Below are positions 60 through 44,309 of a stretch of DNA of 64,000 nt, one piece after another. The position numbers and the translations under genes are program-made. The notes under the pieces are model-generated. The model did not search any database. It had not been told where the DNA came from and worked only from the letters and a program-made list of their open reading frames with translations. This DNA is from a virus, in IMG/VR virus record IMGVR_UViG_3300032293_001730, positions 1 to 64,000 of that record, one strand, 5' to 3'. How positions within the stretch are numbered: the first letter of the stretch is position 1; the number at the start of each line of letters is the position of its first letter.

Positions 60-536
60 ATGGGTCGGCCACCAGTCCCCACTGCACTCAAGCTCCTGCG
101 GGACAATCCGGGCAAGCGGCCGATCAACGATGCCGAGCCCACGCCGCCCCCAATCGACGCGACTCCGCCGGCCGGGCTCGAAGGCCTCGCGGTGGAGAAG
201 TGGCACGAGATGGTCTCGCTCTTGTCAGGCATGGGCGTGCTCTCCCAGGCGGATCGCCACGCTGTACAACGCTACTGCCTCATGTGGGAGCAGTGGTATA
301 ACCTCGAAGCCCACTGCCGTGAACACGGCTCGACTCAACTCACTTCGACCGGATACAGCCAAGTGACTGCGGAGGCCACGCTGGTGAAATCTCTCAGGAA
401 AGAACTCTTGGAGATTGAACGCCAGTTTGGAATGACACCGGCTGCCCGATCTTCCATGAAGGTGACCGGTGCCTCTGCCCCCCAAAATCCTCTTGCCGCG
501 TTTGCCGAAAGCCGACGCGGTCAAGCAGGGGCTTAA
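60..536 (+). CDS. terS: Terminase small subunit, P27 family
   Basis: N-terminal GRPPVPTALKLLRDNPGKR and C-terminal FGMTPAARS are typical of P27-family TerS; lies directly upstream of TerL. Confidence 0.9.
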   Translation: MGRPPVPTALKLLRDNPGKRPINDAEPTPPPIDATPPAGLEGLAVEKWHEMVSLLSGMGVLSQADRHAVQRYCLMWEQWYNLEAHCREHGSTQLTSTGYSQVTAEATLVKSLRKELLEIERQFGMTPAARSSMKVTGASAPQNPLAAFAESRRGQAGA

Positions 537-2144
537 ATACTACTTCGACGAAGACAAGGCCGCCCACGCGGTCGCGTTCTTCGAGCGGTTCCTCACGCAC
601 TCGAAGGGCCAGTTCGCCGGCCAGCCTTTTACGCTGCTCGACTGGCAGAAGAGCGACGTCATCGAGGAGCTTTTCGGATGGATGCGTGTCGACAACGACA
701 TGCGGAAGTACCGAGTCGGGTACATAGAGGTGCCTAAAAAAAATGGCGTCTTGGCCCCTGCGGCTGGTTGCCGTGGGGGCCAAGACGACAATGAGGCAAA
801 TCGACTCTTCTGTCCGGCATAGGCCTCTACACGATGGTCGCCGACGGCGAGCAAGCCGCTGAATGCTTCGGCTGTGCCACGTCGAGAGAGCAGGCTTCGA
901 TCGTCTACAAGCAGATGAAGGAGTTGGTCCAGGCCAGCCCATACCTGTCCGAGATGCTGGAGATCGTCGACTCCCGGAAGACGATCGCTTACGTTCCGAC
1001 GAACAGCTTCTGGAAGGTCATCTCCAGCGATGCCGGCCGGCAGGAGGGTTTGAACATCCACTCGCTGTGCTACGACGAGATTCACTCGGCCAAGGATCGC
1101 AAGCTCTGGGACGCGATCAGGTATGGCGGCATTTCCAGAAGCCAGAGCCTGATTCTGGCGATCACCACCGCTGGCGTGGACCGCAACTCGATCGGCTACG
1201 AACTGCATGACCACGCAATGAAATGCAGGCTCGACCCGAGCTATGACGAGCAGTTCTTCGCCTATGTAGCGGCCGCCGCGCCAGAGGATGACTACCGAGA
1301 CCCCGAGGTGTGGAAGGCGGCGAATCCATCCTGGGGCGTCACGATGGACGAGGAGAGCTTCCGCGCTGACGTCCGCGACGCCGAGCAGTCGAACTCCCGT
1401 CTTTCTGGATTCCTCAGGTACCGACTCAATGTCTGGACACAGGGCGACGGCAACAAATTCATCAAGCTCGATCAGTGGGACCGCTGCAAGGGCCTGTCTG
1501 GCAGCCTCGGCCTGGAGCGAGAGTGGTACGCCGGGCTCGATCTTGCTCAGACCTGGGACTGCAACGCATTCGTGGCGGTGAGCAAGGGTCCGGACGACGT
1601 ATTTGACGTGCTCTGCCGGTTCTGGATTCCCGGTGAGAACGCCGGTATCCGTTCGCAGAAGGACGGAGTCCCGTACACAACCTGGGCCAAGAACGAGTCG
1701 GTGGGCCTTACTCTCACGCCAGGGAACACCTGCGACTACTCGTTCATCAAGCGAGACATCCTCCAGTTCTGCAAAGAGCGAACTGTGCGGATGATCGCCG
1801 TCGATCCACACAACAGCCACTACCTCGTACAGCAACTTCAGGCGGAGGGCCTGAATGTGCAAGGATTTTCACAGTCGTTTGCCAGCATGAACCCCGGGAC
1901 GAAAGCGATCGAAAGTTTGATCGCCCAGGCCCGGCTGCGGACCAACGACAACCCTGTGCTGAATTGGATGGCCGGCAATGCGACGACGAAAGAAAACTCC
2001 GAGGGATACATCAAGGTCGTGAAGCCAAGCCCCATGAGTCCGCTGCGGGTCGACGGAATCGTCGCACTCATCATGGCGGTGTCGATTGCCAGCGACGCCG
2101 CCTCCGCCCCACCGACGCCTGAACCGGAGATTCTGATCCTATGA
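469..2144 (+). CDS. terL: Terminase large subunit in two frames (469-747 + 798-2144, ~541 aa if joined), interrupted in Walker A by a 50-nt hairpin gap
   Basis: 5' part has the adenine-binding region FTLLDWQ and YIEVPKKNG. 3' part continues GKSTLLSGIGLYTM, then Walker B CYDEIH, ITTAG, and nuclease motifs GLDLA and RVDGIVALIMA. Exact start codon uncertain. Confidence 0.9.
747..787 (+). other. 18-bp RNA hairpin filling the terL coding gap
   Basis: CGTCTTGGCCCCTGCGGC-TGGTT-GCCGTGGGGGCCAAGACG: 16 Watson-Crick pairs, 2 G-U pairs, 5-nt loop. Confidence 0.9.
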
Positions 2145-5100
2145 TCGAGGAAAACGCGGCGGTCAGCGACATTGTCTGGACACCGGCACGGGGTGAGAAC
2201 GAGCCCGACGTTCGCAGCATCTCGTGGAACAACATCCTCCTGTCGGACGAAGTCCACGGCGGGAAGTTTCTCACGTCCGCCGAGGTGCGGATCAATCCGG
2301 ACACGGCCCTTCAGTCGACTGTGTTCCTCGCAGCCTGCCGGATCATCAGCGAAACGGTGGCTGGATTGCCCCTTCTCGTCCATCGGCGTCTCAAGAACGG
2401 ACACGAAGAGATCGCGAGCGAGATTCCTCTCTCGCATGTCCTTGGATTCGCCCCCAACAGTTGGCAGACCAAGTTCGAGTTCTTCGAGCAGATGCTCATG
2501 GCCCTGACATGCTGGGGCAACAGCTACACCGAGGTGAAGTCTGGCAAGTACGGGAGCGTAACGGAACTCAACAACCTGCACCCGAGCCGAATGCGGATCG
2601 AGCGACTGGAGAACGGGCGTCTCAAGTACAGCTACAACGACCCGCAGACCGGCCGGATGATGCAGTACACGCAAGATCAGATCATGCACGTCCGCTGGAC
2701 GCCCGAGCCGGACGGCGTGAAGGGCATGGTGCCGGTCGAAGTGAGCCGCGACGCGATCGCGCTTGCTCGTGCGTGCGAAATCTACGCTTCAAAGTTCTGG
2801 GCAAACATGGGCCGCCCCGGCGTGGTGCTCCAAACGGACGGCGCGTTGTCCGCCGAGACCGCTGAGAGGCTCCGCGAGAATTGGGAGAGAATTCATCGCG
2901 GCGTCCAAAATGCTCATAGAACGGCCATCCTCACGAATGGACTCAAAATTGAGCCGTTCGGTGCGACAAATAATGATTCGCAATTTCTGGAGGTCCGGAG
3001 ATTTCAATGCGAAGAGATAGCTCGCTGCTTTCGGTTGCCGTTGCATTTGATTCAGGGGCAGTCAGGCGGCAACCTGGAGGTCCAAGGGCAAGAGTTCGTC
3101 AACTACACGCTGATGCCGTGGCTCACTCGCATCGAGCAGAGCATCAGCCGGTCGCTCATCTACGACGACGCGGTCTACTACGCCAAGTTTGACACGAAGG
3201 GGCTGCTCCGTGGCGACTCCGGGAGCCGCGCAAGCTGGTACTCGACCATGCTCAACCTGGGCGTGCTGTCGATTAACGACATTAGACGTGCCGAAGGGTA
3301 CGGTCCGCTCGGCCCTGAGGCCGACACGCACCTCGTGGCGATGAATTTGCAGCCTCTCGAAGAGGCTGTGAAGCCAAAACCGGACCCGTCGATGATGCCG
3401 GGCTTCGGTTCTGGTGCTCCGCCGAAGGCTCCGGGCGGTCCGCCGAGCCTCTCCGAGGTCAAAACAGGCAAGTCGCCGCTCGAATCTCCCAAGGGAGAGG
3501 ACTCGGCGAAGCAAAGGTCCGAGTCGAGGGAGCTTCTGCCGCAGGACGAGAAGCTCGAAGAGGCTCAGCAAGAGATCGCGGACGAGGACGGCAAGTGGAA
3601 CAAGACCGCCGCACACTACATCGAGAAGAATCCGTTCGCTTCCAGGGGCATCAAGTGCCACAACTGCACGCACTACTTCGAAGAAGGCGGCTGCAAGGTC
3701 GTCTCGGGCTCGATTAACGGCGATGCGATCTGCAAGTTGTGGGTGATCCCGACGGAAAAGATCGTGGATGGCCCTGAGCAGCGGGCATTTTGCCCAACGG
3801 GCGAGGGCGGCGGCGTGAAGAACGACTGCTCGCCGGCCGGGGGCAGCGAAGGCAAGCTGACGGCCTCCGAGGCTAGGGAAAAGTTTGAGCGATACAGGCC
3901 TTTCGTGTCAGTTGGTGACTCAAAAAACTCGGAAAACATTCGCGTCCCCCAGGACGAGGAGATTTCCGCTGCCCTCAAGGATGCGGACGTTCAGCAAAGC
4001 AAGATCGGCGCCAGCCGGAAGCTGCCGGATGGCACGCCGGTAGCTCTCCGCATCGACATACCTGCCTGGAATAAGTCGGAGGGCAAGACATACGTCGTTA
4101 CTGTCCATGAGGGCAAGAATCCAGAAGCAAAAAAGCCATTCGGCAGCGTACTTGGCTATGACTCCATGGCAATGCTGAGCGGTCCGGTGCGATTTTCTGC
4201 AAATGACGAAGACCGTGCCCAGCAAGTTGCCGAAGGAAAGAGCAAAACGCCTCTGGCGACTGTCAACGGAGCGTTTTCGGCAAGCAGAGACGTCCCTTCG
4301 GACATCGACTCGTGGACTCCCGTTGGGTACGACCCGCAGAAGGCCACTTATTTCTACGACAAGAGGACGGGCCAGGAAGTTGTGGGCGGAGTCGGCGCTC
4401 TGAGCGCTGGCAACACCGTCTTCACCCGCGAGCCGAAGTACGGAAACAGGAACGCGAAGACGCACTACCGCTCTCTTGAAGAGATGATGGCCGTCGACTC
4501 GTGGGGCCTTGAGTCTCGCGGGTTTTGCCCGACGGGCGAGGGCGGGGGCATCGACAACTCGTGTGGAGACAAGGACGGACAGGGCGGAGAAGACGGCAAT
4601 TCGTCTGATGGAAATGGTTCCAGCGGTGATTCGCCTTCAGACTGCCCGAAGCCATGCCACGATGTAGACGTCGAGGTAGACAAAAACCAGGACGGAGTGA
4701 CTGACAAGGCCCGCGTCGGCGTCCCGGCGATGGACGTGCCGCCACCACCGCCGATCCCCCGCATTCCAAACCTCGACGAGCGTGCTCGTGCAGTCGAAGA
4801 GTCGTTCATTGCTCACTACGAGGATGATCCCGAGGGCGTCGCGGGCCAGTTTCGCGAACTCGTGGGCTCGATGGGCGATCCGCCGACGTTCGGCACTGAC
4901 GACGCCAAGTGTTTGACCGATGCATGGAGCGATCCGGACCCCGAGTCACGAGCAGAGAACCGCGCGACGCTCAACACCTGCCTCCATCAGGCCGCAAACG
5001 CCATCGCTAAGCGAGCATTCCTCCAGCATCTCGACACGCTTAAAGAAGGCGACGAGATCATGGTGACGGTTGGCGGCTGCGGCGCAGGCAAGGGCTTCGC

Positions 5101-5608
5101 TCTCAAGAACAATCCGAAGGCCCTGGAGCAGAAGGGCAAGTCGAAGGCCGTGTGGGACTCCGCCGGCGACCAGAACGCGACTGAGAACCCGTGGATTCTC
5201 GCCGAGGCCGAGAAGCGAGGCCTCAAGGCGACGTTCGTGTATGTACACGCCGACCCAGAGAGGCAGTGGGCCGACCCTGAGCGTGGCGTTGTGAAGCGTG
5301 CGAGCGATCCGAAGGACGGCCGCATGGTCGACGCGAAGGTTTTCGCGGACAGCTATGCGATCGGAGCCAGGAACCACCACGCTTTCCATCAGGCCAACAA
5401 AGACAACGCCAGCGCATCGTTCGTGTTCCTCGATAACACGGGGAAGCCAAAGGAAGTCTCTGGTGTTCCGAAGGAAGCGCTCGCCTACGACTCGGCGAAG
5501 CTGGCCGAATTTGCTGAGCGAACGGTTGAAAAGTCATCGGCGCCGGACCGCGTGAAGACCGGCGCGTTGCAGGGCCGCAAGATTTGGGGCAAGGCGAAAA
5601 AGAAATGA
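2141..5608 (+). CDS. HK97-family portal with long C-terminal extension (Cys4 HiPIP-like module, unknown module, zeta-toxin-like P-loop kinase)
   Basis: First ~410 aa have HK97 portal motifs (TVFLAACRIISETVAGLPL, QFLEVRRFQCEEIARCFRLP, GVLSINDIRRAEG). Then KCHNC..C..CKLW, two RxFCPTG tags, and VTVGGCGAGKG..VYV..RA..GRMV. Confidence 0.88.
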   Translation: MIEENAAVSDIVWTPARGENEPDVRSISWNNILLSDEVHGGKFLTSAEVRINPDTALQSTVFLAACRIISETVAGLPLLVHRRLKNGHEEIASEIPLSHVLGFAPNSWQTKFEFFEQMLMALTCWGNSYTEVKSGKYGSVTELNNLHPSRMRIERLENGRLKYSYNDPQTGRMMQYTQDQIMHVRWTPEPDGVKGMVPVEVSRDAIALARACEIYASKFWANMGRPGVVLQTDGALSAETAERLRENWERIHRGVQNAHRTAILTNGLKIEPFGATNNDSQFLEVRRFQCEEIARCFRLPLHLIQGQSGGNLEVQGQEFVNYTLMPWLTRIEQSISRSLIYDDAVYYAKFDTKGLLRGDSGSRASWYSTMLNLGVLSINDIRRAEGYGPLGPEADTHLVAMNLQPLEEAVKPKPDPSMMPGFGSGAPPKAPGGPPSLSEVKTGKSPLESPKGEDSAKQRSESRELLPQDEKLEEAQQEIADEDGKWNKTAAHYIEKNPFASRGIKCHNCTHYFEEGGCKVVSGSINGDAICKLWVIPTEKIVDGPEQRAFCPTGEGGGVKNDCSPAGGSEGKLTASEAREKFERYRPFVSVGDSKNSENIRVPQDEEISAALKDADVQQSKIGASRKLPDGTPVALRIDIPAWNKSEGKTYVVTVHEGKNPEAKKPFGSVLGYDSMAMLSGPVRFSANDEDRAQQVAEGKSKTPLATVNGAFSASRDVPSDIDSWTPVGYDPQKATYFYDKRTGQEVVGGVGALSAGNTVFTREPKYGNRNAKTHYRSLEEMMAVDSWGLESRGFCPTGEGGGIDNSCGDKDGQGGEDGNSSDGNGSSGDSPSDCPKPCHDVDVEVDKNQDGVTDKARVGVPAMDVPPPPPIPRIPNLDERARAVEESFIAHYEDDPEGVAGQFRELVGSMGDPPTFGTDDAKCLTDAWSDPDPESRAENRATLNTCLHQAANAIAKRAFLQHLDTLKEGDEIMVTVGGCGAGKGFALKNNPKALEQKGKSKAVWDSAGDQNATENPWILAEAEKRGLKATFVYVHADPERQWADPERGVVKRASDPKDGRMVDAKVFADSYAIGARNHHAFHQANKDNASASFVFLDNTGKPKEVSGVPKEALAYDSAKLAEFAERTVEKSSAPDRVKTGALQGRKIWGKAKKK

Positions 5609-8600
5609 GCAAAGCATCCGAGCGGGCGACGGAATTGATCGAGGAGATCAAGAAAGCGGCCGGGATCGGCGACGGCCTCGTCGAGTGGTGGGCCGAGGAC
5701 GCCGATCGCGTCAACAAGATGGCCGAGAAGGCCAGGAAGTTCGCCGCCAAGGTGACGAAGGCCGGCAAAGAGGGCCGTGCCTACTGCCCGACCGGCAAGG
5801 GCGGTGGAGTCGACAATTCGTGCGGGGCCAAGCAGATGATGGCCCCGGACAAGGACGGGGGCGGCGGGGCTGGCGGAGGAAAGCCAGATGAATCCAAGAA
5901 GAGTGAGCCACTCACTCCGCAAAACATTCCGCAGGTGAACTTCAGGACTTCGGAAGTCTCGCATTCTGAGTTCATGGCATCGCGAGACAAGTCCACTCGG
6001 AAGCACAATTTCTCTGAGATTTCCGAGGAGAAGTTCGCCGAGTCTCAGATTTTTTTATCTTCCGACGGTACGGCCGGATGCCTCGTAGACAAAGACGGAG
6101 ACTTGGGAAACGTCTTCAACAACGACGGCCCCAAGAGGGCCGGCTCGGCGGCCGTCATCGAGGCGATCAAATCAGGCGCAAAAACGCTCGACTGCTACGA
6201 AGGTCATTTGACGACGCTATACTCTCAGTTGGGGTTCGTGCCCGTGGCGAAGCTCAGGTTCGTCGACGAGTACGCTCCCCCGGACTGGGACTACGAAAAG
6301 AACAAGAGGCCTGACGTCGTCGTCATGGCCTACCAAGGCGGCGATCGGCAGACGATTCAGAGTCGCGCTGGAACCTTCCCTCCCTACACAGCCCTTCCTG
6401 ACTCCGAGTACACAGATGACTTCGACGCGGCAAAAAGAACTGCAAGACTGGCGAGCGACTCTCACGAAGGACGAAGATCAGTACGTCGAGATGCTGATCA
6501 GCGTGAAGGGAGAGGAGTACGTCCTAGAGACGCTCGACTTCCTCAAGGATCAGTTGGAGACCGCGAGAACTCTCTAGAGTCTCGCGACGACTGCGTCCGC
6601 GATCCGAGCGGGAGATTCGGCGAAGGAAACAAGTGCCAGGAAGGCGCCGGAACAGGCGTCGAGGGGCAAGGCGTTCCTCGCGTTGTGGTCAACGTGGCGC
6701 AGCAAGCGATCTCATCGCCCTCAACAGCGAGGAGCGATGACGGAAAGTCGATCGTCAGTTCTTCTGTTGGCTCTCGCGAAGACGGGACGATCTATAAGTT
6801 CGGCGGCCGCGAGTATGTCAGCACGACAGCCGCCGGAAAGTATCTCGCGGACAGGCAGGCCGAGTCTCGTGGCCCGGCGATCGACTCCGCGAAACCCCTC
6901 GGCGACAAAGACCGCGAGTACGTCGCTGAATCACATGTAGCGCAAATACAAGCCGCCGCCGGCCGGGGCATCAAGCCAGTCTTCTACACGCCAGAAGAGC
7001 GACAGCGGCAGATTGACGAGTTCTCCAGGATTGAGCCTCGCATCAACGGGGGCAGGACAAAGGCTGGCTTCGAGGTCAGCCCTGAGAACGCGGAGTTTCT
7101 GTTCCGTGCCGTGCAGGCTTTGACAAGCTCAAACGCCAGTCCGTTCGCAAACATGCAGCGAACGGACTCCGTGCTGTCGAAGGTATTCGACGGCGACGGC
7201 CGAGTCTCGACTTCGACATCGTTCGGCGTTACCGGCGCAGCGATCAAGTCCTCACTGTCTCGCCTACAGGGGGTGATTGACACGCTCGGAAAGCGACCGG
7301 ACGGCTCAATTGATCCAGCTATGGGCCTAGACAAGACTCGCGACCTATTCACCGGCACAAAAATGCGAGCCGGCGATTTCGACAAGTTTTTTAGGGAGGA
7401 GTTCAAAGGCGAAGGGCCAAGCGTCAAATCATGGAAGCCGGGGAGCTTCCTTGTGGACCAGGAAGTACCTCTCTTCTGCACGTTCGGCCCAAAGTTCGGG
7501 TGCTTCTTCGCGAACAACACCGGCGACTCTGCGCCACTCACGGCCGACATCTGGGCGACTAGGACCTGGGGCAGGATCACCGGAGAGCTTGTGCAGGAAG
7601 CTAAGGCCGGAAAGGCTAAGGACCACGCCAATGAAACGCTGCGAGTGATCAAGGGCGCTAACGCCCAGCAATTGCATGGCGTTGACGGAAACCAGCTTGT
7701 CGACTCCCTGAAAAAAATGTCCGCCACTGGCGAGATCGACGACACCGTTCGTGCGTGGTCGAGCGCTCGGCTGCGGCACTATGCTTCGACTGACTACTCG
7801 GAGAAGCGTGGCACGGCCGGGAAGCTAAATAAGCTCGCCAAGAACATTGTTGAGAACGACACGTCGCTCATGGGCGACCCAGGCAGCGGCAAGCGACGCG
7901 CGAACATGATCGACGTCTACGACTCGATCAGCAAGGCTACCGGGCTTCCGGTCGCGTACGCGCAAGACGTCCTCTGGCAAGACGAGCAAGACGCCTACGC
8001 AGCACTCGGTGCCAAGACGGCAACAGAACAAGGCAAGCTGTCCTTCTACTCTGATCAGATCAGGAAAATTGCCGAAGACCAGTCAAATCGCATTGCCCGT
8101 GCAAAGAAAGAGCGACGCAACGAGTCGCAGCAAACCACCGGCGACTACGACGACTACGAGACGGGCGGCCGCGAGAACCTCTTGTACTGGGAGATGATCA
8201 GCCACCTGTCCGACGAGCAGTTCGTGAAAATCCTTCTCGACATCGAAGGACGCACTTCGGAGCGAAGGGCATTTTGCCCGACGGGCGAAGGCGGCGGCGT
8301 CGACAACTCGTGCTCGACGGACGATTCGCCCGGCGATGCGGGAGAGGGCGGCGGGGGCGATGCCGGTGGCTCCGGTCCCGAGATCAACATCGGCGACAAG
8401 CGAGAGGAAATCGACCGTCGCCTGGATTCGATGGGCGTCGTCGAGGATGACGTTGTCAGCATGGCAGGCGGCGCGTCCGACGGGACGTATGTCTTCATGC
8501 GTCGGGACCATGACCACGAAGGCGGCGACGGCCTGCATGTCGAGACCACGCGAGACGTGGCCGGCGTGAAGGGTGGCCTATTCAGCCAGTCTGTCATTTA

Positions 8601-11600
8601 CAACGCAGGGCCTGCCGAAGACCCGGAGATTGTCGTCGATCACAAGCTGATGGACGTGAAGACGGACGTGAGCCGCGACCCGGAGAAGCGGCACGCAGCC
8701 GCTCGCGAGTTCTTCCGGATTATGACGGGGAGCGTCGAGGCCTCGATCAAGCAAGGCGTCTCGAAGGTTACGCTCAACGCGGCGGGTGATCCACGGCAGG
8801 CCCGAGATGGCATGTTCAAGGGCTACACCATCTGGCCTCGCATGGGATTCGACGCCCCGATTCCTTTTCATGTTCGCAACAAGCTGCCCGAGACTCTCTC
8901 GCACTGCCGCAGCTTGATCGACCTACACGCGACACCCGAAGGCACGAGGTGGTGGCGAGACAACGGCACGGACCTCGACGTTCAGCTTGACCTGACTAGG
9001 CCCGACAGCCCGCAGATGCAGATTTTCGGCAAGTTCGTCCGGCACTTTGAGCGAAGCCGCCGCGAGCTTGCTGTTGGCGAGGGCCTCGACTGGCTGTCCC
9101 CGGAGGACACCGCCAAGCTCGAAGAGTTGTGGGAAGAGATTTGGGACGACGGGCTGCTCGACGACTACGAGGGCGAATCAGAAGATTTCTCGACTCTTGA
9201 GAAGAGAGCATTCTGCCCCACCGGCGAAGGCGGCGGGATCAAGAACGACTGCTCGGCGTCGGATGGCGGCGGCTCTTCGGTAAAGGAACTGGACAACTCC
9301 TGGGAAGACTCGGAAGAGATTGTCGCGGTGTACGAGGGCAAGGACCTCGAAAGACGCCCGCCGATCGAGGGCGCTGAAAAGCTGCGATCCCTTGCAATCG
9401 AGAGCCCGGTCGACATGAAGTCTGCCCTGGACGAGATGGGAGTTTCGCTGTCGGACGCCGTGACCATGTGCGCGGCGCCGTCCGAGGGCACGACAGTCAT
9501 CGTGTCTCCCGAGCATCCATACGATTCGATGGGGCTGGGGACACCGGGCGAAGAGAGCAAGGCCGTTGCGTTCGTGATGACCACGAAGGACGTGTCTGGC
9601 ATCAAAGACGCCCTCGACAGTAACTCGTCTCTGAGAAAAACCAGCGACGGCGAGCTTGTCCTTGAGTATCACGCGTTCCACGCATCGGCAGAGGCCCAAG
9701 AGAAAGCCGCCGTCGCATGCGCGAAGGAAGTGATCGGCGGCGTTATCAAGAGCGTGTCGCTCGCCGAGAAGAGCGGCGTCTCCGAGATTCGCCTCGATGC
9801 CGCCGGCAGCAAAGACAGCGAGGCGTTCAAGGGCTACCGAATGTGGCCGAAGTTCGGCTTCGACGGCGTGATCCCGAGGAAGATGCTCACCCGGCTTCGA
9901 GAAGCCGATCTTTCGCCACGGGCCGTCGCCGAGAAGCGGGCCGGCAAGCTGACGATCCAGGCCTTGTACGAAACGAAGGCCGGGCAGAAGTATTGGGAGG
10001 ATCGGGGACAGGAAATCCCAATGTGGCTCCGCCCAGGCGACCAGAGCACTCCCGGCTGGGAGCGTTTCAAGGCGTATCGGCAACGGCTCGGCAAGCTCGC
10101 CGAGAACCGGAGCTTTGAGGCCGGCGACGAAATCTTCTCTGACGAAGAACTGAAGAAGCTCGAAGAGTTGTGGGAAGAGTTTCGTAAGGAGTCCGGCGAG
10201 AAGCGAGGCTTCTGCGCGACGGGCGAGGGCGGTGGCATCGACAATTCGTGCGGCTCCGACGGCAAGGCGTCTCCTCCGCCTGTCGAGCCTGCCGGCCTTG
10301 ATGTAGCCATGCCATCCAAGAACGGATGGAAGAGCCAAGAGGCGGTTGTTTATTGGGACAAAAATTCGCTGAGCGGGTCAGTCAGTCCGTCGAAGTTACT
10401 GAAGGCCGCCAACTCTTTCACCGTCGTTGACGGGGCAGAGCTTAGCGGTGTTCTCAAGAACACAGGCATCTCGCTTGACGATGCCATTCGCGTCATGGCC
10501 TCGTCGGACGATGACGTGAACATCATCGCCACCGCCGGCGACACGGCCTACGCGATGGGTCGAATGAGCGGCGAAGGCGGCGGCGTAGCCAGCGACAGTG
10601 AGTTCACTGTCGTTTCGAGGAAGGACGTCGACGGCGTGACCAACGCGATCACCGTCACTACTTCCATGAAGAGGCACGAGTCCGGCGAGCTTGAGTTGAA
10701 GTACACGCTTTTAGACGTGTCTCCGGAGGTAAAGGAAAACTCCCGAATCTCGATCGCTCGCCAAATGATGACGTCTGTCACTGCCAGCATCGCCGCCGCC
10801 GAAGAGGTCGGCGTCGACACCATCACGATGCGTGCCGCAGGCGACGCGAGCAACGATCGGTACAAGGGCTACAGAATCTGGCCGCGACTGGGGTTCGACG
10901 GAGAGATTCCCCGAAATCTTGTGACGCGAACGTGGTCCCCGATGAAGGGCGTGTTCAACAGCTACGGCGACAAGATTCCAGACTCTGTTCTCTCTCCCAA
11001 GGCGAGGCAGGAGAAGGCCGGCGGGAAGCTCACCATCCAGTCGCTGTACGAGACAAAAGAAGGACAGCGGTGGTGGGAGAAGTACGGCGGCGGCATGTCT
11101 ATGTCGCTCAGCGTAAGCGACAAGGAGAGCCAGGGCTGGAAGGTCTACTCGAAGGTTCGAGAGCGTTTCGGCAAGTCGTCGCGTGACCTGCTCTCGGCCA
11201 TCGCGGAAGCGTGGATCGAGCGTCGGGCATTTTGCCCAACGGGCGAGGGCAACGGCATCGACAACTCGTGCTCCCCGAAGATGGCCGCCGACAAGGATGG
11301 CGGAGGCGGCGGATCAGCAACGTCATCGCGTTGGGGCGGCGACGAAGCCAACTGGGGGACGTCGAGCGGAACCGAGATTTGGACTCCTGGCAAGCCTCTG
11401 TTCGCGGGCTCTGAGTCGCTCGCGGCCATCAAGATTCACAAGCCAGACGACATCCGCCAGCGGATCGTGGATGGTCTTGGGATGACGGTAGCAGAGGCCG
11501 TGCTGGCGTCGGGCCCCATCAAGGAAGCTGCCGATCGCGCGAGCATCACGCGGCCACGCCTTGAGATCATTCCGCAGCAATTCGGAGACGGCATCGAGAT

Positions 11601-12315
11601 GCACTGGTCCGCGATGGGCGTCGCCACTGGCGAGGGATTTCAGGACGACGAGAAGCAGTTCGCGAAATCCGGCACTGCCGTGAAGGCTGTCGAGGCTTCG
11701 AGAAACATTTCCAAAGGCCGCGACGGCAATGTCCTGCATATGGCGGGGTTCTTTGTTCATCCAGACTTCCAGGGCAAGGGCCTCGCCCTGGAGTCCGTCT
11801 CGAAGTCGGTGTCCTCTGGTGCCGTCCGTCTCGTGATGGAGGCGGAGCGGTTTGATACTGCGAACCCAAACATGAGGATGACTGGGTACCACGTCTGGCC
11901 GAAGTACGGATACGACGCGCCGATCGCCGACGTAGCCAGGGCTCTCCGATCGGGCAGCATTCCTGAGCAGTTTGCAAAGGCCAAGTCCCTCCTCGACATC
12001 TACGCGATGCCCGGTGGACGCGAGTGGTGGAGAGAGAACGGCGGCGCGATCAAGCTCACGTTCGACGCCCGCCCGCGAAGCAAGAGCCGAGAAGCTCTGA
12101 TAAAATTCCAGGATCGGACAAAGGAGCGTCGCAGCATGCCGGCACCAGATAGCTCGCGTCGTGGCATCGACTGCGACAACGATCCGATCCTGGACGAAGT
12201 CTGGGACGAGATTCAGGAGAACGGCCTCAGCGGCGAAGCCCCGAGTCAGGAAGACTGGGACCGCTGGGACAAAGAAGACCAGGAGGCCAAGGATGGCAAA
12301 GCCCGAGAAGTATAG
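5605..12315 (+). CDS. Large polyvalent head-associated protein (~2,236 aa): GNAT-like module, HhH-glycosylase-like module, four paralogous GNAT-like modules
   Basis: ATGA overlap with the portal stop. Modules are separated by six Cys tags. Motifs: LDCYEGHLTTLYSQLGF..YAPPDW; GPKFG.FF.N...TADIW; four copies of GY.xWP.xG[FY]D..[IL]...G..[WY]W. Domain names are by recognition only. Confidence 0.75.
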   Translation: MSKASERATELIEEIKKAAGIGDGLVEWWAEDADRVNKMAEKARKFAAKVTKAGKEGRAYCPTGKGGGVDNSCGAKQMMAPDKDGGGGAGGGKPDESKKSEPLTPQNIPQVNFRTSEVSHSEFMASRDKSTRKHNFSEISEEKFAESQIFLSSDGTAGCLVDKDGDLGNVFNNDGPKRAGSAAVIEAIKSGAKTLDCYEGHLTTLYSQLGFVPVAKLRFVDEYAPPDWDYEKNKRPDVVVMAYQGGDRQTIQSRAGTFPPYTALPDSEYTDDFDAAKRTARLASDSHEGRRSVRRDADQREGRGVRPRDARLPQGSVGDRENSLESRDDCVRDPSGRFGEGNKCQEGAGTGVEGQGVPRVVVNVAQQAISSPSTARSDDGKSIVSSSVGSREDGTIYKFGGREYVSTTAAGKYLADRQAESRGPAIDSAKPLGDKDREYVAESHVAQIQAAAGRGIKPVFYTPEERQRQIDEFSRIEPRINGGRTKAGFEVSPENAEFLFRAVQALTSSNASPFANMQRTDSVLSKVFDGDGRVSTSTSFGVTGAAIKSSLSRLQGVIDTLGKRPDGSIDPAMGLDKTRDLFTGTKMRAGDFDKFFREEFKGEGPSVKSWKPGSFLVDQEVPLFCTFGPKFGCFFANNTGDSAPLTADIWATRTWGRITGELVQEAKAGKAKDHANETLRVIKGANAQQLHGVDGNQLVDSLKKMSATGEIDDTVRAWSSARLRHYASTDYSEKRGTAGKLNKLAKNIVENDTSLMGDPGSGKRRANMIDVYDSISKATGLPVAYAQDVLWQDEQDAYAALGAKTATEQGKLSFYSDQIRKIAEDQSNRIARAKKERRNESQQTTGDYDDYETGGRENLLYWEMISHLSDEQFVKILLDIEGRTSERRAFCPTGEGGGVDNSCSTDDSPGDAGEGGGGDAGGSGPEINIGDKREEIDRRLDSMGVVEDDVVSMAGGASDGTYVFMRRDHDHEGGDGLHVETTRDVAGVKGGLFSQSVIYNAGPAEDPEIVVDHKLMDVKTDVSRDPEKRHAAAREFFRIMTGSVEASIKQGVSKVTLNAAGDPRQARDGMFKGYTIWPRMGFDAPIPFHVRNKLPETLSHCRSLIDLHATPEGTRWWRDNGTDLDVQLDLTRPDSPQMQIFGKFVRHFERSRRELAVGEGLDWLSPEDTAKLEELWEEIWDDGLLDDYEGESEDFSTLEKRAFCPTGEGGGIKNDCSASDGGGSSVKELDNSWEDSEEIVAVYEGKDLERRPPIEGAEKLRSLAIESPVDMKSALDEMGVSLSDAVTMCAAPSEGTTVIVSPEHPYDSMGLGTPGEESKAVAFVMTTKDVSGIKDALDSNSSLRKTSDGELVLEYHAFHASAEAQEKAAVACAKEVIGGVIKSVSLAEKSGVSEIRLDAAGSKDSEAFKGYRMWPKFGFDGVIPRKMLTRLREADLSPRAVAEKRAGKLTIQALYETKAGQKYWEDRGQEIPMWLRPGDQSTPGWERFKAYRQRLGKLAENRSFEAGDEIFSDEELKKLEELWEEFRKESGEKRGFCATGEGGGIDNSCGSDGKASPPPVEPAGLDVAMPSKNGWKSQEAVVYWDKNSLSGSVSPSKLLKAANSFTVVDGAELSGVLKNTGISLDDAIRVMASSDDDVNIIATAGDTAYAMGRMSGEGGGVASDSEFTVVSRKDVDGVTNAITVTTSMKRHESGELELKYTLLDVSPEVKENSRISIARQMMTSVTASIAAAEEVGVDTITMRAAGDASNDRYKGYRIWPRLGFDGEIPRNLVTRTWSPMKGVFNSYGDKIPDSVLSPKARQEKAGGKLTIQSLYETKEGQRWWEKYGGGMSMSLSVSDKESQGWKVYSKVRERFGKSSRDLLSAIAEAWIERRAFCPTGEGNGIDNSCSPKMAADKDGGGGGSATSSRWGGDEANWGTSSGTEIWTPGKPLFAGSESLAAIKIHKPDDIRQRIVDGLGMTVAEAVLASGPIKEAADRASITRPRLEIIPQQFGDGIEMHWSAMGVATGEGFQDDEKQFAKSGTAVKAVEASRNISKGRDGNVLHMAGFFVHPDFQGKGLALESVSKSVSSGAVRLVMEAERFDTANPNMRMTGYHVWPKYGYDAPIADVARALRSGSIPEQFAKAKSLLDIYAMPGGREWWRENGGAIKLTFDARPRSKSREALIKFQDRTKERRSMPAPDSSRRGIDCDNDPILDEVWDEIQENGLSGEAPSQEDWDRWDKEDQEAKDGKAREV
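6416..6577 (+). CDS. Nested out-of-frame small acidic helical protein (53 aa)
   Basis: ATG 6416 to TAG 6577 reads MTSTRQKELQDWRATLTKDEDQYVEMLISVKGEEYVLETLDFLKDQLETARTL with G/C-ending codons, while the host frame becomes Arg-rich and off-frame-like. Confidence 0.6.
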   Translation: MTSTRQKELQDWRATLTKDEDQYVEMLISVKGEEYVLETLDFLKDQLETARTL

Positions 12316-22270: not shown

Positions 22271-22932
22271 ATGGCATTTCTCAACAAGGCGGCGATTCTG
22301 GCGGCGAAGGACAAGAAGCAGGTCGAGGTCACTGTTCCTGAGTGGCTCGACGATGCAGGGCAGCCCGGAGTGGTCTGCCTTCGGGTGCTGACCGGCACGG
22401 AGCGTGATCGCTTCGAGGCCGAGTTCGTGGGCGGCAACAAGAGCGTGGACATGGTCCGAGCGAAGCTCGTGGCGAAGTGTCTGTGTGACTCGGAAGGCAA
22501 CCGTCTCTTCACCGAGCAGGAGATTCCTGCTCTCGGCGAGAAGTCGGCAGCCGTCCTCGACCGGCTCTTCACGCAGTGCATGAAGTTGAATCGGTTTACC
22601 AAAGATGACGTGGAGGAACTCGCGGGAAACTCCTGAGCCGTCCGAGGCGGCGATTTGAGTATCGGCTGGCGTTAGCACTCGGCAAGACGCACAGGCAACT
22701 CCTTGAGGAGTGCGATGCGCAAGAACTCGCTGAGTGGGAGGCCTTTTGGCTCATCGAGCCGTGGGGGGACGAGTGGCGACAAATCGCTCGTCTCACCACG
22801 GCTCTTTGCACTGCCTGGGGCAGCAAGAACCTTGAAGAAGAAATGATCATGCCGAGCCACAGGAAGCAACAGCAAACGCCTGGGCAGATGTTGTCTGAGC
22901 TAATGAAAATTCCATCGCTGACAAAGAAGTAA
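22271..22932 (+). CDS. Tail assembly chaperone G (22271-22636) and -1 frameshift product G-T (to 22932)
   Basis: Slippery G_GGA_AAC at 22624-22630 just before the stop. The -1 frame is open (LALALGKT..ELAEWEAFWLIEPWG) to TAA 22930-22932, abutting the tape measure ATG. Confidence 0.88.
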
Positions 22933-25900
22933 TGGCAACGATCGGCAGCATCACCGTCGCGTTTGGGGCGGACCTTCGCGGGCTGAGCGAGGGGATCGAC
23001 TCCATTGCCGGCATGTTCGATCGAGTATCCGAGAAGGCAGAGAAGCTCGCCGAGCAGCTTGATTCGATCACATCGAAGTCGGTTTCGCTCAAGGTGGCGG
23101 TGGAGTCGTCTGGGGTCGAAAAGGCGAAGTCTCAGATCAAGGACATTCCGGGCAATTCTACAAAGAAAGTTTCTGTCTCAGTTGATGCGTCAGAGGTTGC
23201 CGACGCTGGAGACGACGTCGCCGATCTGGGCACGTCGCTCACTGCGACGTCACAGGCAGCCTCCGGCGGGCGCGGCCCCTTGGCGTCACTTCTCGTAACC
23301 ACGGCAAGGCTGTCCTCGACCGCGATTGCCGGGGCCTCGGCGTACTCGCAATTGCGAGAAGCGACATTAAAAAACATCAGCGCAATTACCGGACTTAATT
23401 CGACGCAGAAGTCGCTGGTTGTTATTCAGGAAGCCCTTCGCGGGAACGGAGCAGCCCTAAAGGTTGTTATCCAGGCTACATCGCAGGCCGTCCGGGAATA
23501 CGCGAAGTCTTTTTTGACGGTCGAGGGAGCGCAGGCAGCACTACAGAGCGCCGCGCTGGCAACCGCCAGGGCGTTTGGCATATCCGACGAAGCAGTAGTG
23601 AGGTCTATCGGGTTCTTCTCTCAGTTCGCCACCAATCAGATCGCGACTGCGGGAGTGTTTCGTATTTCGCAGAGGGCTTCCGATCTTCTCGCGAAGGGCT
23701 ACGAGTCTCTCGCCGTCTCCGCCGCTAAATACTTCACTGGCTCCGACCGGGCTCTCGCCGCAGGTAAGTCTCTCGCGGACGCGCTGAAAAGCCTCGCCGC
23801 CGGCGTGAATTTCCTGAACAAGGGATTCGACTCCGCCGCCAGTGCTATCGCCAAGTTCTCCCAAAACTTCAATATCGTCGGGCGGGTGTCTGCGACTGTT
23901 GGAGCGGCCTTTGACAAAGCCGCTTCGCTCGTTTCTTCTTTCGCGTCGTCCGTTGCGTCGTCAAAGACTGCCTCGGACGTGATCAGAGCTTTCTCGGCGG
24001 CTTTCGGAAGCCTTTCTGCGGCGGCAAAGTCTGCGTCCCCAGTAATTGCCGCGACAATGAAAAGCATCGCGGCAGGCGTGGCTCCGGCGGCGAGACTTGT
24101 CGGCAGCTTCAGCTTACTGGCGACAGCGTTTTCTGTAGTCTCTGCGGCTTCAGGGGAAACTGCGGCAGGGTTTTTTAGGGTCGCCGCCGGCGCGGTGGCG
24201 CAAACTGCCGCCGTTGGCGCCGCAACCGGCGCCATCACGGCCGCTGCGGCTGGCACGTCGGTCATGGCCGGTGCCGCCGCTGGTGCTGCAACGGCTGTTG
24301 GCGGCCTTGCCTCGATCTTTCCGGTCACAACTGCCCTGGCTGTTGCCCTGGCTGTTGCCACGGGCCGTGTTGCCCACGCCCTGCAACACGTCGGCGACAA
24401 CGCAGAGATGATGGGCAACCTCGCCGACAGGTTCGGACAGCCCGTGCAGGAGATCGAGAAGCTCAAGATCGCCGCCGAGCAATCGGGCGTCGCGCTTAAC
24501 TCCGTCGTTCGTGCGCAGCAGATTTTCAGCCAGAACGTCAGCAAGATCAAGATCGGCAACATGGGCGTGGCTCAGACTCGCGAGGCGAGCGCGGCCATGA
24601 AGCAGTTGGGCATCAGCGTCGAGGACCTCCGGAACAAGAAGCCCGAAGATTTGTTTCTTGACGTTGCTCGCGAAATCTCCAAGCTGCCGGACGCCACAAA
24701 GAAGACGCAGGTCGCGATGGACCTGTTCGGGCGAACCGGCCCGCAGCTTCTTCCGCTTCTCAAGAATCTTGAACAAGTCAACGAAGACATCGGCAGGCTT
24801 GGCGGAACGATTAGCGACCTCGATTTCGAGAGGTTCCTGGCCGTAGACCAGTCCTTCGACAGGCTGCGGACAGCATCCGGGGCCATGACAGACGACCTCG
24901 CCATTCCTTTCACGAGGATGCAGGAGGCCTGGAACAACGCGTCGGCCGAAGTCATTGGCGGACTTGCGCCTCTCGTGGGCGCCGTGAGCGAGGTCATCGC
25001 GGACCTGTCCACTCCACTCGCTGTGATTGTCGAGGTGACAGGCAGGGTAATCGGCATTTTTGCAAGAGTTGCTGCGGCCGTCACGAAGATCGTCACGGCT
25101 TTCCTGCCCGTGGCTTCGATAGCCGTTCTTTTCGAGCTACTCGGAGACGCGATCAACGCGGTCTTGTCTCCGGTGGAGGGCCTCGTGGAGGGACTGGAGG
25201 GTTTCGCGTCTATGATCGAGGAGGCCATGCGGCCCACGGTTGAAGGGTTTCTTGAGATTGGCGAGGCCGCAACAGAACTCCTAAACATACTCACCGATTT
25301 TATGGGCCTCGGACATATTTTCGGCGAAACGACCGCCTCCCTGCTTGCCCTCGGAGCCGCGTATCTTGTAGTCACGTCTTCATCGCGAATCTTCTCTGCC
25401 GTTATGGCGACCTCGGCCGGGACTGCCATCGCAAGCGCAGTCACGACGGCCGCAGCCTGGGTCGCCGCCGGGGCTGCAATCGCCGCATCACTGATCGGCG
25501 TTGCGGTCGTGGGGATTACGGTCTATGTCGCTTCACTCATTGCAGCCACTGCGGCCACCATTGCCTCCTGCGCAGCGATGCACATCGCGTGGCTGTTCGG
25601 CCTTGGCCCGATTGGCCTACTGATCGCTGGCATCGAACTCCTTGCGGTTGGTGTCATTGCCCTGTACGCACTCGGGGGAAGCATCGTCGACTTCTTCAGT
25701 GGCTGGGGCCAAGGCGCCAAGGAAATCGACGGTGCTACTGCAAGCGTCGAGGAACTGACTGCGGCCGTTGAGGAAAATCAGAACAAGGGATTGGGCAAGG
25801 ACGCACAGGCGTTGGCTGACGCACTCGCACCTTCCGGAGGCAGTTCTGGAACCGCCAGTGTCGATTTCGGTGACGATGGGAGGGTCGCGGAAGCGGAGTT

Positions 25901-29796: not shown

Positions 29797-32700
29797 ATGA
29801 TTTTCTGGCCTTTTCTCTACGTCAAGGATCAGGCTCACTCGACGACTGGCAGTGAGTATACAAGTCAGTATGTCGATCGTCGCACTCTGTCCTCGCTGCA
29901 AGGCCTCGGCTATTCGCCGTGGATTGAAAACCAGGGGGACTGGGTCGACTTCAGTGGTGATATTGCCACCAACGGATTCGGGCTTCCGTTCACAGGAGGC
30001 TACGCGATCAAAAGCGACGGCACGCTGTGGTCTCTCGGCGGCACGCCGACCGACACTTTGTTCCAGGGAGATGACATCGCAAAGCCGTATCAGGTCGGCT
30101 CCGATTCAGACTGGGCGAGTTTCTCCGGCGAATTCATCCTCAAGACCGACGGGTCACTGTGGTCTTTTGGAGGAAAGGGAAGAGGGTCCGACTTACAGTC
30201 CTTCTATGGCAGAGGAGATGCTATTTCTGGCGGATACGGAAATGATAATAGCTTCCGCGCAGTAATATCTTGTTCAATTCGGTCGATTGAACTATTCAGC
30301 TATCAGCCGCACTTTGCAAAGAAGCCTGCGGTTACAATCGAGTCGAGAAAAAGGGTCGGCTACAATGAATTTACGCCCGTTCCACTTGCGGGGGGGAGCG
30401 GCGTTCAGTTGTCTGTCAACTGGAAGGGCCAGCTACGCGATATTCGCCTTGTGTCTGGCGGATCAGGCTACACGTCCGCGCCGACCGTCTCTGCAATTCC
30501 CGAGGGCGATGACGTCGACGATGGTTTGAAAATGTGGGCCTTAATGAATCCCTCCGCAACGGCTAGGTTTGTTGTCCAGTCGGGCGGATCGGGCTACACA
30601 TACGCGACCGCGACCGATCCGATCACTGGGGCAACCGCAGACGCAGTTGTAGAAAACGGGGCGGTCACTTCCTGGACGATGACGTCTTCCGGCTCCGCCT
30701 CGCGGAGAATTTCCACTTCCCCGTACTTTCCGAGCGTCCAGTCAACGACGGCAACGGTTCAGGGTGACGGCACTGGCGCAGCAGCCTCCTGCGTGGCGGC
30801 ACCGACGTCGATAGCCGGAATTAGGGCTGGAAACTCAATATTCTCAACCGGGAACATATACGCAAGCGCCGACAACCCTCAGTGCTGGACGACGCCGCCT
30901 TTGATTTCCATCTCTGGCGGCGGAGGCTCTGGGGCGGAGGCCGTAGTCGACAACTTGTGGGGAACCATAAAGTCGATTGCGGTAACCAACGGCGGGAGCG
31001 GGTACAGCGGAGGCAGCTTGTACCCGCTTCGAGCCGTCGCGACCCCGGCCAGCGGCGACACTCTTTCCACGAAAGAGGACATCGGCGACGTAAAACTTTT
31101 AGGCGGCAGCGTCGTTCGGATTGATGGACCGCAAGCTCCTGTTTTTCTTGGCGGCCAGACGGCAAGTACAGGTGTCATGCAGCCGTTCAACATTGAAATC
31201 GCAGACATGTCCGAGCAGGATGCAGCAGGGTTTCCAGCCAATATACCCTTTAGTGCGGAGTTGGTCGGACTTGGCGGGCTGACTGTCCCGCTAACGTTGT
31301 CGTCTCAGGTGTATACCGACGGCGGTACCGTGGCTCGCAGAAAAATCTTCGCGTCGCTCGACAGCCCGGCGGGGGGCTTCGGCCGCCAGCCGCCGATGAT
31401 TCGTACTTACTTCCGTGGACATAGAGAAGGTATTCCTACGGCTACAGAATTTGTTCAAAGAGTATTTGTGAATGATTGCAATGACTGTAGCTATGGTTCG
31501 TCTGGTTTCACGGTCTGCGCCGGCAGTACCCCGACGGCACTTGTCGCAAGAGTCGGACTAAGCAACGGTTTTTTGCCTAACGCGTTTCTGCTTGCAAACT
31601 CGGCAAAAAAAGTTAAAGCAGCCGGACCGCTTGGCGCAGAAATTGAATATGTGAACATAAACGGCGAATGGCGTCAGGAGTCGTCTAAGAATGTATTGCT
31701 TGGCGAGTACCCTCATTCGGCTACCGTGCCAATCCCCCCGCCGTCTAACCCCCCCGTCGACATTGAGTGGAGCGACGCACCGCTTCGATTTTCTAATTCG
31801 TATCCGTGGTGGAATGCAGGCTACGCTTTTATCCCAGAAAGAACATCCGAATTCGCTAACATTTACTGCATCGACGGTCGGCCGGGGTCGGCCGGGGTCG
31901 GCAGTTTGGCTACAGGGACCGCAAGCCTTACTCAAGGAGCGGGCGGGCTTTGGGGATACCAGTCCGTATCGCTTGCGTCCGGAGGGTCTGGATACACAGA
32001 AGAGCCGACCGTATATTTTGCGATCAACTCTCGGCCGATACCCGAAAGAATTGGAAACAAAACATGGACCAGCGTCGGCAGCAGCGTCACGGTTGTCTGG
32101 CTGCGAAATCTGGCGTTCTTCAATTTTGCCAGCCCCCTGACGGTACAAGTCGGCGTGACGACATCCGGAGAGGCGTACTTTATACCGTCTGCTTATTTTA
32201 ACGACGGCGGCCAGCCAATTCCTGTCGGGAGAGGGGTGAAAGTTACCTGCGAGACAACGCTTACAGACCATATTGATCAATCCAGGATTATCATTGATTA
32301 TCCGGACTCTCCACTTGGCGAGCAGCCGAGTGTCAATAGCTGGAGGGCAGGCTATTTTCCAAACTTTTTGAATCGCGAGAGTGGCCTTGCCGCAACCCTT
32401 GAAAGCCAGGATTTTCCAGCGGACGGAAAAGATGAACGGCAGTACAGAACAATCGCGTTCAATCAAGAGTTTTTCGGCGGTGGATACACAAAGGTGCCCG
32501 CCGTTCGTTTTTTAGAACTAGACCCCGACAATCCTATTTACGAGTTTACGGCCGAGCTTGTCGGGCCTGAATCTTTTTCGAGGGTATCCGGGACTTTCCT
32601 TATTGACTCAAACGGTACTGCGTGGGACCCGTTTTCAAAAGAGCCAGGGGCGTACCCGACGATCACCGCAGTCAGCCGCACAAAATTCGTCGGGAGAGCC

Positions 32701-39646: not shown

Positions 39647-39856
39647 ATGATTATCCTGACCACCGTCGAGGCGGCCGAAGAACTCGGGACAAGCGCGTCA
39701 AGCATTTCTCGTGCTGCGAGGAAGGCCAACGTGGGAGTCCGACGAGAGGACGGTCGCCTCGTCGGTGTCAGCCGCAACGACATGAAGGCGATCAAGAAGC
39801 TCCTGCGGTACAAGGCCGGCAATCCCAACTTCGTCAAGGTGAAGAGGCATGCATAA
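39647..39856 (+). CDS. Small HTH protein
   Basis: LTTVEAAEELGTSASSISRAAR; TTGAAA-N16-TACAAT upstream (39603-39630). Confidence 0.7.
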   Translation: MIILTTVEAAEELGTSASSISRAARKANVGVRREDGRLVGVSRNDMKAIKKLLRYKAGNPNFVKVKRHA

Positions 39857-44135: not shown

Positions 44136-44269
44136 GAGGGAAGGCATGGTCACAGCCTTATTAGGTTAACGCTCCGCCGTGAGCGTCAGCGGCTTGTCAA
44201 CACGGCCGCATCGGTCGCCCAGTCGGAAGGTGGCGAGTAACGTCCGACATAGTCCTTTGCATCTCCTGG

Positions 44270-44309
44270 CGGGGCCGGCACTGTGCCCAAGCGGTGCCGG
44301 CCCCGTTTT
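44270..44309 (+). terminator. Rho-independent terminator
   Basis: CGGGGCCGGCAC...GTGCCGGCCCCG followed by TTTT, just upstream of the 44317 promoter. Confidence 0.7.

Follow-up and report, generated by a model that had tools for sequence, protein, structure and literature searches.

A hairpin gap inside the Walker A codons of phage terL genes, a candidate for programmed translational bypassing

We analyzed a window of 64,000 nucleotides (nt) from an uncultured freshwater phage, the first 64 kb of the 93,893-base-pair (bp) IMG/VR virus record IMGVR_UViG_3300032293_001730, which CheckV rates as 96% complete. Near the start of the window lies terL, the gene for the large terminase subunit, and its reading frame is broken within the codons for the Walker A motif (P-loop) by a short non-coding gap that is almost entirely filled by one hairpin. 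An earlier note on this DNA had proposed that ribosomes hop over the gap. The parts of the locus are as follows, with lengths of proteins in amino acids (aa).

60 to 536, plus strand: terS, the small terminase subunit (Pfam Terminase_4, E = 1.9e-20); it overlaps the start of terL
469 to 747, plus strand: frame-1 5' segment of terL, which starts at GTG 469 and runs to the take-off codon; 93 aa, ending ..YIEVPKKNG
727 to 732, plus strand: GAGGTG, a Shine-Dalgarno-like Glu-Val codon pair 12 nt 5' of the take-off codon
736 to 744, plus strand: AAA AAA AAT, the Lys-Lys-Asn codons of the P-loop; a run of eight A (A8, 736-743) plus T
745 to 747, plus strand: candidate take-off codon GGC (Gly), the last terminase-like codon of frame 1
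747 to 787, plus strand: GC-rich RNA hairpin of 18 bp, with arms 747-764 and 770-787 and loop 765-769
748 to 794, plus strand: non-coding gap of 47 nt; with one Gly codon included, the skipped length is 50 nt
788 to 794, plus strand: tail acaatga, rich in A, poor in G and variable in sequence; it includes TGA 792-794, which lies in the landing frame
795 to 797, plus strand: candidate landing codon GGC (Gly), the first GGN 3' of the hairpin
795 to 2144, plus strand: terL 3' segment in frame 3, with the Walker A residues GKST, the remaining ATPase domain and the nuclease domain
820 to 822, plus strand: TAG that closes frame 1 for non-skipping ribosomes, as read from the sequence

Frame 1 from GTG 469 reads ..YRVGYIEVPKKNG up to the Gly codon GGC at 745-747, and this 5' segment aligns residue for residue with the N-termini of uninterrupted relatives. 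Past GGC 745-747 the frame continues through 24 codons that are not terminase-like and ends at TAG 820-822. The rest of the gene is found in frame 3, where TGA 792-794 is directly followed by GGC 795-797, then by KSTLLSGIGLY.. and, after 449 aa, by the stop at 2142-2144; this segment matches the Pfam families TerL_ATPase (4e-18) and TerL_nuclease (5.6e-34). The GGC codons at 745-747 and 795-797 lie 50 nt apart, and a 50-nt deletion yields PKKNGKST with a single Gly, which is the exact sequence of all uninterrupted relatives. The coordinates, frames, GGC spacing, 18-bp hairpin and restoration of Walker A put forward in the earlier note were all confirmed from the sequence, and so was its observation that no stop follows the take-off codon, the A-site codon being GTC.

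The insert is shared by many other phages. A protein-guided scan of IMG/VR returned 80 related loci; about 60 related contigs were informative, with both halves of terL present, and 28 of these carry the insert at exactly the same point of the P-loop. Using the pattern of the hairpin core, a further scan of IMG/VR matched 43 contigs and reached some much more distant TerLs. Among its 23 new contigs, 17 have the hairpin in the terL P-loop, and the remaining six have matches outside the terL P-loop that resemble ordinary terminators. Additional variants came from a loose pattern scan of metagenomes, in which terL was found at 7 of 120 loci among the matches listed. Overall, more than 60 contigs, viral or metagenomic, have one of about 36 distinct hairpin variants (33 in the main table and three from other searches) at this point of the P-loop, and the TerLs that bear them are 35-98% identical to the TerL of the window. 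Close and distant relatives alike therefore carry the insert, at the same site and, with few exceptions, with matched flanking codons, which was one of the checks suggested in the earlier note. In the genome collection we found one close match, the contig L094 of an unclassified metagenome-assembled genome with a 48-nt variant, and no close prophage. Among GenBank phages, the TerL closest to the window's is 38% identical and nothing matches the junction at the DNA level; the insert was seen in no cultured phage.

The continuity of the gap was checked against assembled contigs (Logan) from an independent study. These contigs cross the insert unbroken and none is without it, rare gap-less molecules being beyond their reach. 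Contigs from run X2 stop inside the hairpin with a 9-nt overlap (window 773-781), and this looks like an assembly effect. Short-read assemblies tend to break at the hairpin palindrome, and such gaps may thus be hidden in other datasets.

Both halves of the interrupted gene have also been maintained. In a clade of 13 sequences, all of them hairpin-bearing and separated by synonymous divergence (dS) of 0.24-1.4, the ratio of nonsynonymous to synonymous substitution (dN/dS) is 0.12-0.25 for the 5' segment and 0.05-0.12 for the 3' segment; pairs with indels (the window, WIN, versus L008, L024 and L040, and L024 versus L039) were disregarded as misaligned. No second large terminase was found in the genome, which leaves the split terL as the sole TerL, and the virion genes for portal, HK97-type capsid, connector and tail completion are intact. 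Given the purifying selection on both halves, the sole TerL and the intact virion genes, the comparative data indicate that a functional TerL has long been made from the interrupted gene, and that the gap is real and old and is neither an assembly artefact nor decay. The view of the earlier note that recoding or RNA excision is likelier than decay is borne out by these values.

A different possibility is that the split terL is non-functional, as in defective or helper-dependent elements, or that it is made as two separate fragments that assemble, with the hairpin acting at the DNA level or as a selfish element. In its favor, all of our sequences are metagenomic, cultured phages lack the insert, and two of the variants described below, L038 and L032, may well be dead alleles. 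Nevertheless, this reading sits poorly with strong purifying selection on both gap-bearing halves over a dS of about 1, and with a single TerL and intact virion genes in a genome that is 96% complete. For the two-fragment version, no in-frame start codon separates TGA 792 from the GKST codons, and an ATG first appears at 834, past Walker A, so that a separate C-terminal fragment would miss the P-loop lysine. We therefore give this family of explanations a slim chance.

The lengths that must be skipped differ among variants and amount to 39, 46, 47, 48, 49, 50 or 51 nt, so all three phases are represented. A stop codon (TAA, TAG or TGA) is present in frame 0 within the loop in all 11 distinct in-frame variants and in 8 of the 26 out-of-frame ones (Fisher p = 9e-5; here and below, counts are drawn from related sequences and p-values are optimistic). 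Stops in the landing frame are about as frequent in the out-of-frame variants as chance would predict. A TGA closes the frame that continues into the 3' part in the window, in every 49-nt variant and in several of the 47-nt ones. Finally, the spacing PKKN-G-KST is identical in all 18 uninterrupted close relatives, and distant relatives also have one residue at this place (Gly, or Ala in two).

These observations bear on the proposal that terL is expressed by frameshifting, by transcriptional slippage on the A8 run or by stop read-through, with the hairpin as a stimulator like that of dnaX and with 13-17 extra residues in the P-loop. The order of GAGGTG, A AAA AAT and a strong hairpin does resemble the dnaX -1 cassette, and roughly half of the variants of 47 and 50 nt have no stop in the -1 frame across the gap. 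In the window, however, a ribosome that slips by -1 on the A8 run (736-743) is brought into frame 3 and meets TGA 792-794 after 17 codons; such a slip cannot rescue the gene, as the earlier note had pointed out. The 46-nt and 49-nt variants would require a +1 shift and the 49-nt ones have a TGA in that frame, the in-frame variants all carry stops, and six hairpin variants have no A8 run. In addition, the spacer between slippery run and stem is merely 2-3 nt, and a read-through product would add its 13-17 residues within Walker A, between PKKNG and KST, breaking a motif of conserved spacing. The occurrence of all phases, the stops and the Walker A spacing together exclude a single frameshift, A8 slippage or stop read-through as the common mechanism, and we consider this explanation very improbable. 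Exact skipping fits the same facts, and on the strength of the sequence comparison the gap is very probably skipped exactly, either in the RNA or during translation.

In the hairpin at 747-787, a stem of 18 pairs, including two G-U pairs, carries a loop of 5 nt. A fold of 725-830 has a minimum free energy of -55.1 kcal/mol (z = -5.9), and 0 of 200 shuffles were as stable. It is the longest uninterrupted stem in the window, and the 93.9-kb genome has one longer stem, of 19 bp, at 73715-73757 outside the window. We aligned 31 hairpin variants (29 distinct) for analysis of covariation, a check that the earlier note had also proposed. The 18-pair helix is paired in 97% of cells and 8 of the 18 pairs are altered on both sides, values that are matched in 0 of 500 shuffles and that collapse in slid controls. 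Most variants contain 2-4 G-U pairs, and because of these pairs the sense strand folds more stably than the antisense strand (mean -37.4 versus -30.6 kcal/mol; sense more stable in 27 of 31 variants). This greater stability of the sense strand points to a structure formed in the mRNA, and away from a DNA cruciform or a palindrome bound by protein, and hence for selection on a sense-strand RNA hairpin; the G-U pairs in particular speak against the DNA-level role raised above. An Rfam scan of the gap region returned no family match, including no intron family, a terminator scan did not find the hairpin at 747-787 to be terminator-like, and no second copy of the hairpin cassette was found in the 93.9-kb genome. 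Two other long GC-rich hairpins, at 44268-44307 (17 bp) and at 73715-73757 (the 19-bp stem), are unrelated in sequence to the terL hairpin. They are placed between called open reading frames (ORFs) or at an ORF's edge, and probably act as terminators or in regulation.

In nearly all variants, the gap lies between two Gly codons. All Gly-type variants use GGC, GGT or GGG as the take-off codon and, with the exception of L034, GGC, GGA or GGT as the landing codon, such that variation at both codons is limited to the wobble position. In L112, L113 and L121, the hairpin is located one codon earlier and is bounded by AAT..AAC, both of which encode Asn. The two codons form a pair for one tRNA, GGN/GGN or AAT/AAC, across 33 variants (GGC/GGC in the window), the exceptions being L032, L034 and L038. 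Between the stem and the landing codon lies a tail of 5-8 nt (a single nucleotide in L097) that is different in almost every variant. The 22 distinct tails are 32% A and 20% G, and GG occurs in 1-2 of the 20 Gly-type tails versus about 10 expected from the composition of the genome. Reading 3' from the stem, the landing codon is the earliest cognate triplet. Matched Gly or Asn flanks and GG-poor tails fit the signatures of re-pairing by a peptidyl-tRNA.

These features are also relevant to whether the gap is instead a mini-intron, in which a host or phage nuclease would cut the hairpin segment from the mRNA and the ends would be rejoined, followed by ordinary translation. A conserved hairpin on the sense strand, whatever the length and phase of the gap, is as compatible with excision as with bypassing, and the unmatched codons of L032, L034 and L038 would be easier to explain by excision. 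But excision requires only one of the flanking codons and would leave the other free to drift, so that matched flanks with wobble-only variation favor re-pairing; a mini-intron leaves unexplained both these Gly or Asn flanks beside a hypervariable tail and the avoidance of GG in the tails. The stem is perfect and has no bulge-helix-bulge, Rfam gave no intron match, and neither RtcB nor an RNA ligase was found in the phage genome by a search that covered phage genes. We know of no bacterial system that excises about 50 nt from an mRNA and religates it, which also counts against a mini-intron. All considered, we view excision as unlikely, if less so than the other alternatives.

Taken together, the spread of phases, the stops in the loop, the matched codons at two positions and the tail composition favor bypassing over frameshifting and argue against simple excision, and they extend the support for the bypass interpretation of the earlier note beyond a single sequence. 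We therefore lean, by somewhat more than an even chance, toward the proposal that the gap is retained in the mRNA and that ribosomes skip it by programmed translational bypassing. Under this proposal, the ribosome would translate ..Pro-Lys-Lys-Asn-Gly and would then be held by the very stable hairpin, which starts at the last base of the Gly codon. The peptidyl-tRNA-Gly would release GGC 745-747, the hairpin would be passed undecoded, and the tRNA would re-pair at GGC 795-797, the first cognate triplet behind it. Decoding would restart at AAA, the P-loop would read PKKNGKST without interruption and the complete TerL would have about 541 aa, while ribosomes that do not skip would terminate at TAG 820. 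The junction Glu-C peptide of the bypass product would read VPKKNGKSTLLSGIGLYTMVADGE, with no inserted residues. We rejected alternative pairs of take-off and landing codons (Lys AAA to AAA, and Asn in the window) that would delete or add P-loop residues.

The sequence upstream of the take-off codon may contribute as well. About 90% of hairpin variants use GAG GTG CCN AAA AAA AAT. GAG is found in 31 of 32 and GTG in 28 of 28 hairpin variants, compared with GTG in 3 of 7 uninterrupted relatives, and the codons AAA, AAA and AAT are used in 30, 29 and 32 of 33 hairpin variants, respectively. The upstream peptide is identical in uninterrupted relatives, which mostly use AAG AAA AAC and mixed Val codons. 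GAGGTG and the A-run could help to stall or loosen the ribosome; their association with the hairpin could equally be that of a co-converted flank. Given that L032, L040, L097, L112, L113 and L121 have hairpins and no A8 run, the run is not essential. The hop, its trigger and the roles of the A8 run and GAGGTG are what we infer.

Several observations weigh against bypassing. Three variants have no matched codons (L032, AAT..ATC; L034, GGC..TGC; L038, CCG..CTG), and these may be dead alleles, cases of mismatched landing or a pointer to some other mechanism. Should tRNA-Gly(GCC) be the tRNA involved, landing from GGC to GGA or from GGT to GGA would entail a mismatch at the wobble position in the P site. 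The A-site codon after take-off is never a stop or a rare codon; it is GTC in the window and GTC, GCC, CGC, GTG or TCC across variants. Lastly, the 18-bp stem far exceeds the take-off stem-loop of gene 60 of phage T4, about half of it would already be unwound when GGC is in the P site, and the passage of the hairpin is the weakest part of the model.

Comparison with known systems places the terL gap nearest to two of them. The 50-nt bypass of T4 gene 60 has homologues among the topoisomerase genes of myoviruses (Huang 1988 and Bonocora 2011, both cited via PMC5009743; bioRxiv 10.1101/2022.08.31.505936), and in this cassette family take-off is at Gly46 or at the neighboring Asp45 with matched landing codons, premature landing triplets are absent, and the gap is AU-rich in its 3' portion (bioRxiv 10.1101/2022.08.31.505936). 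Similarly, the terL gap is about 50 nt long and located inside a conserved motif of an essential phage enzyme, with a stem-loop directly after a Gly take-off codon and a synonymous landing codon. In some members of both families take-off is shifted to an adjacent codon, with landing again matched, and the 3' part of the terL gap is likewise A-rich and free of premature landing triplets. Spread of the terL gap may be horizontal, as in gene 60, and the terL site, like that of gene 60, is probably a homing-endonuclease target. They differ in that the host gene here is terL, at its Walker A codons, and in that the cassettes have no evident relationship, as judged without alignment. The terL stem is GC-rich, has 18 bp and fills nearly the whole gap, versus a short take-off stem-loop in gene 60. 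Unlike gene 60, and unlike the mitochondrial elements discussed next, terL has neither a stop nor a hungry codon in the A site at take-off. There is also no linked MobA or HNH gene and no dedicated N-terminal extension peptide in terL, the A8 run and GAGGTG are found upstream, and in terL bypassing is a proposal.

The byp elements of Magnusiomyces capitatus mitochondria, reportedly described by Lang et al. in PNAS in 2014, are said to be mobile, hairpin-forming inserts of 27-55 nt in coding regions. They reportedly are kept in the mRNA and skipped, with a relaxed matching of take-off and landing codons (some being weakly matched or unmatched) and with unassigned codons as the block. The terL element is likewise a short hairpin insert in a coding region with some members that have no matched codons. 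In contrast to byps, which are mitochondrial and present in many copies in many genes, the terL hairpin is at one site in one gene, with no second copy in the genome. The terL element appears to work most like the gene 60 gap and the mitochondrial byps, while it differs from the former in its A-site codon and from the latter in not being multi-copy.

Two further systems share fewer features. In the terminase gene of phiHau3, a Streptomyces phage, a candidate UUA-triggered bypass of 10-nt inserts (7-nt in two prophages) has been described (Smith 2013; PMC10732093), and gaps of this type were reported for 3 of 100 genes examined (PMC10732093). In both phiHau3 and our phage, an essential large terminase gene is broken by frame-breaking non-coding nucleotides with a Shine-Dalgarno-like element 5' of the gap, and bypassing was proposed. 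The phiHau3-type gaps are, unlike the terL gap, 7-10 nt long, led by UUA, hairpin-less and at other protein positions; there is no in-frame TTA at take-off in window 745-797. The dnaX -1 frameshift cassette consists of a Shine-Dalgarno-like element, A AAA AAG and a hairpin (PMC5009743), and the same order of elements is seen in terL with GAGGTG, A AAA AAT and a stable hairpin. Unlike dnaX, terL has a -1 frame that is closed in the window, gaps in all phases, a spacer of 2-3 versus about 6 nt, and a frameshift product with a disrupted P-loop. Our search of the literature on bypassing and terminases found phiHau3 as the only case and no paper on hairpin gaps in terL.

The distribution of the hairpin suggests that it is mobile. 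In a tree of 86 TerLs, all hairpin genes fall in one well-supported clade together with 19 hairpin-less genes, and at least 5-7 gains or losses are required. The similarity of the hairpins does not follow this tree, with identity of 39-40 of 41 nt to the window's hairpin in TerLs that are only 39-45% identical to the window's and of 27-29 of 41 nt in TerLs that are about 70% identical. This conflict, together with an intein at the same site in relatives, suggests a mobile cassette that appears to be transferred from one terL lineage to another through recombination; alternatively, the hairpin may have descended vertically and been lost precisely several times. An example of a putative acquisition is L032. 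Uninterrupted genes surround it in the tree, and its identity to the nearest relative is low in a patch that begins about 120 nt upstream of the insert and ends about 60 nt downstream. Over L032:700-850, nucleotide identity to its nearest relative, L035, is 60-75% in the patch and 90-100% further away, and the patch looks like a gene-conversion tract from a foreign donor that was acquired with the hairpin.

Inteins occur at nearly the same position. Three genes of the same clade (L038, L031 and L033, the latter two at their 5' ends) have an intein inserted between the Lys and Ser codons of GKST (ALA[IV]DTP...THN|S). The intein of L038 (514-1590) has a LAGLIDADG_3 domain, and L049 has a mini-intein at the same place (2601-3001). 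With inteins and hairpins both at the P-loop codons, these codons are therefore a hotspot for selfish elements. The intein-bearing gene of L038 also carries a different hairpin of 52 nt (L038:505-565). It has TGA in its loop, lies between ELP and KKNGK, 9 nt upstream of where the insert is usually found, and represents a dead allele or else another kind of gap. The gene 60 gap has been shown to disrupt the recognition site of the homing endonuclease MobA. By analogy, a hairpin beside the point of intein insertion may disrupt recognition by a homing endonuclease and protect the P-loop site; no HNH gene was found in the window's own genome. Regarding the suggestion of the earlier note that the device limits terminase output, horizontal spread and the homing-endonuclease intein point to a selfish or anti-homing origin at least as much.

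Other genes of the window are described here for completeness. The portal ORF (window 2141-5608) encodes 1155 aa, with the portal domain confined to residues 62-386 and a long low-complexity C-terminal extension, and is followed by an ORF of 2243 aa (5584-12315). More giant ORFs are found at 22932-28529 (1865 aa) and 29797-36657 (2286 aa), and a phage protein with a histone deacetylase domain (Pfam Hist_deacetyl, E = 1.3e-33) is encoded at 39849-40733. No tRNA gene was found within the window.

We tentatively put forward a broader proposal, to which we assign slightly less than an even chance: that mobile hairpin cassettes are widespread in the Walker A codons of terL in uncultured freshwater phages, that ribosomes hop 39-51 nt over them without a stop or hungry codon, that the trigger is an 18-bp stem abutting the P-site codon, and that the cassettes are kept by blocking attack by inteins or homing endonucleases or by tuning terminase dosage. 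To our knowledge, long-range bypassing is experimentally established only for T4 gene 60 with its homologues and for the mitochondria of one yeast. If our proposal is correct, the terL gaps would form a second bacterial bypass family with dozens of natural variants that differ in gap length (39-51 nt), Gly or Asn take-off, loop and tail, some without the A-run. Such a collection would provide a natural mutational series for why the ribosome lets go, how a large stable hairpin is passed and how landing occurs. The gaps matter for phage annotation, where an interrupted terL would be called as two fragments or missed, and they bear on the competition between selfish elements and homing endonucleases for the best-conserved positions of phage genes. 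If the gap is instead removed from the RNA, this would be a new kind of bacterial mRNA splicing and equally notable. If the broader proposal holds, long-range bypassing may be a recurrent strategy of phages and not a curiosity of T4.

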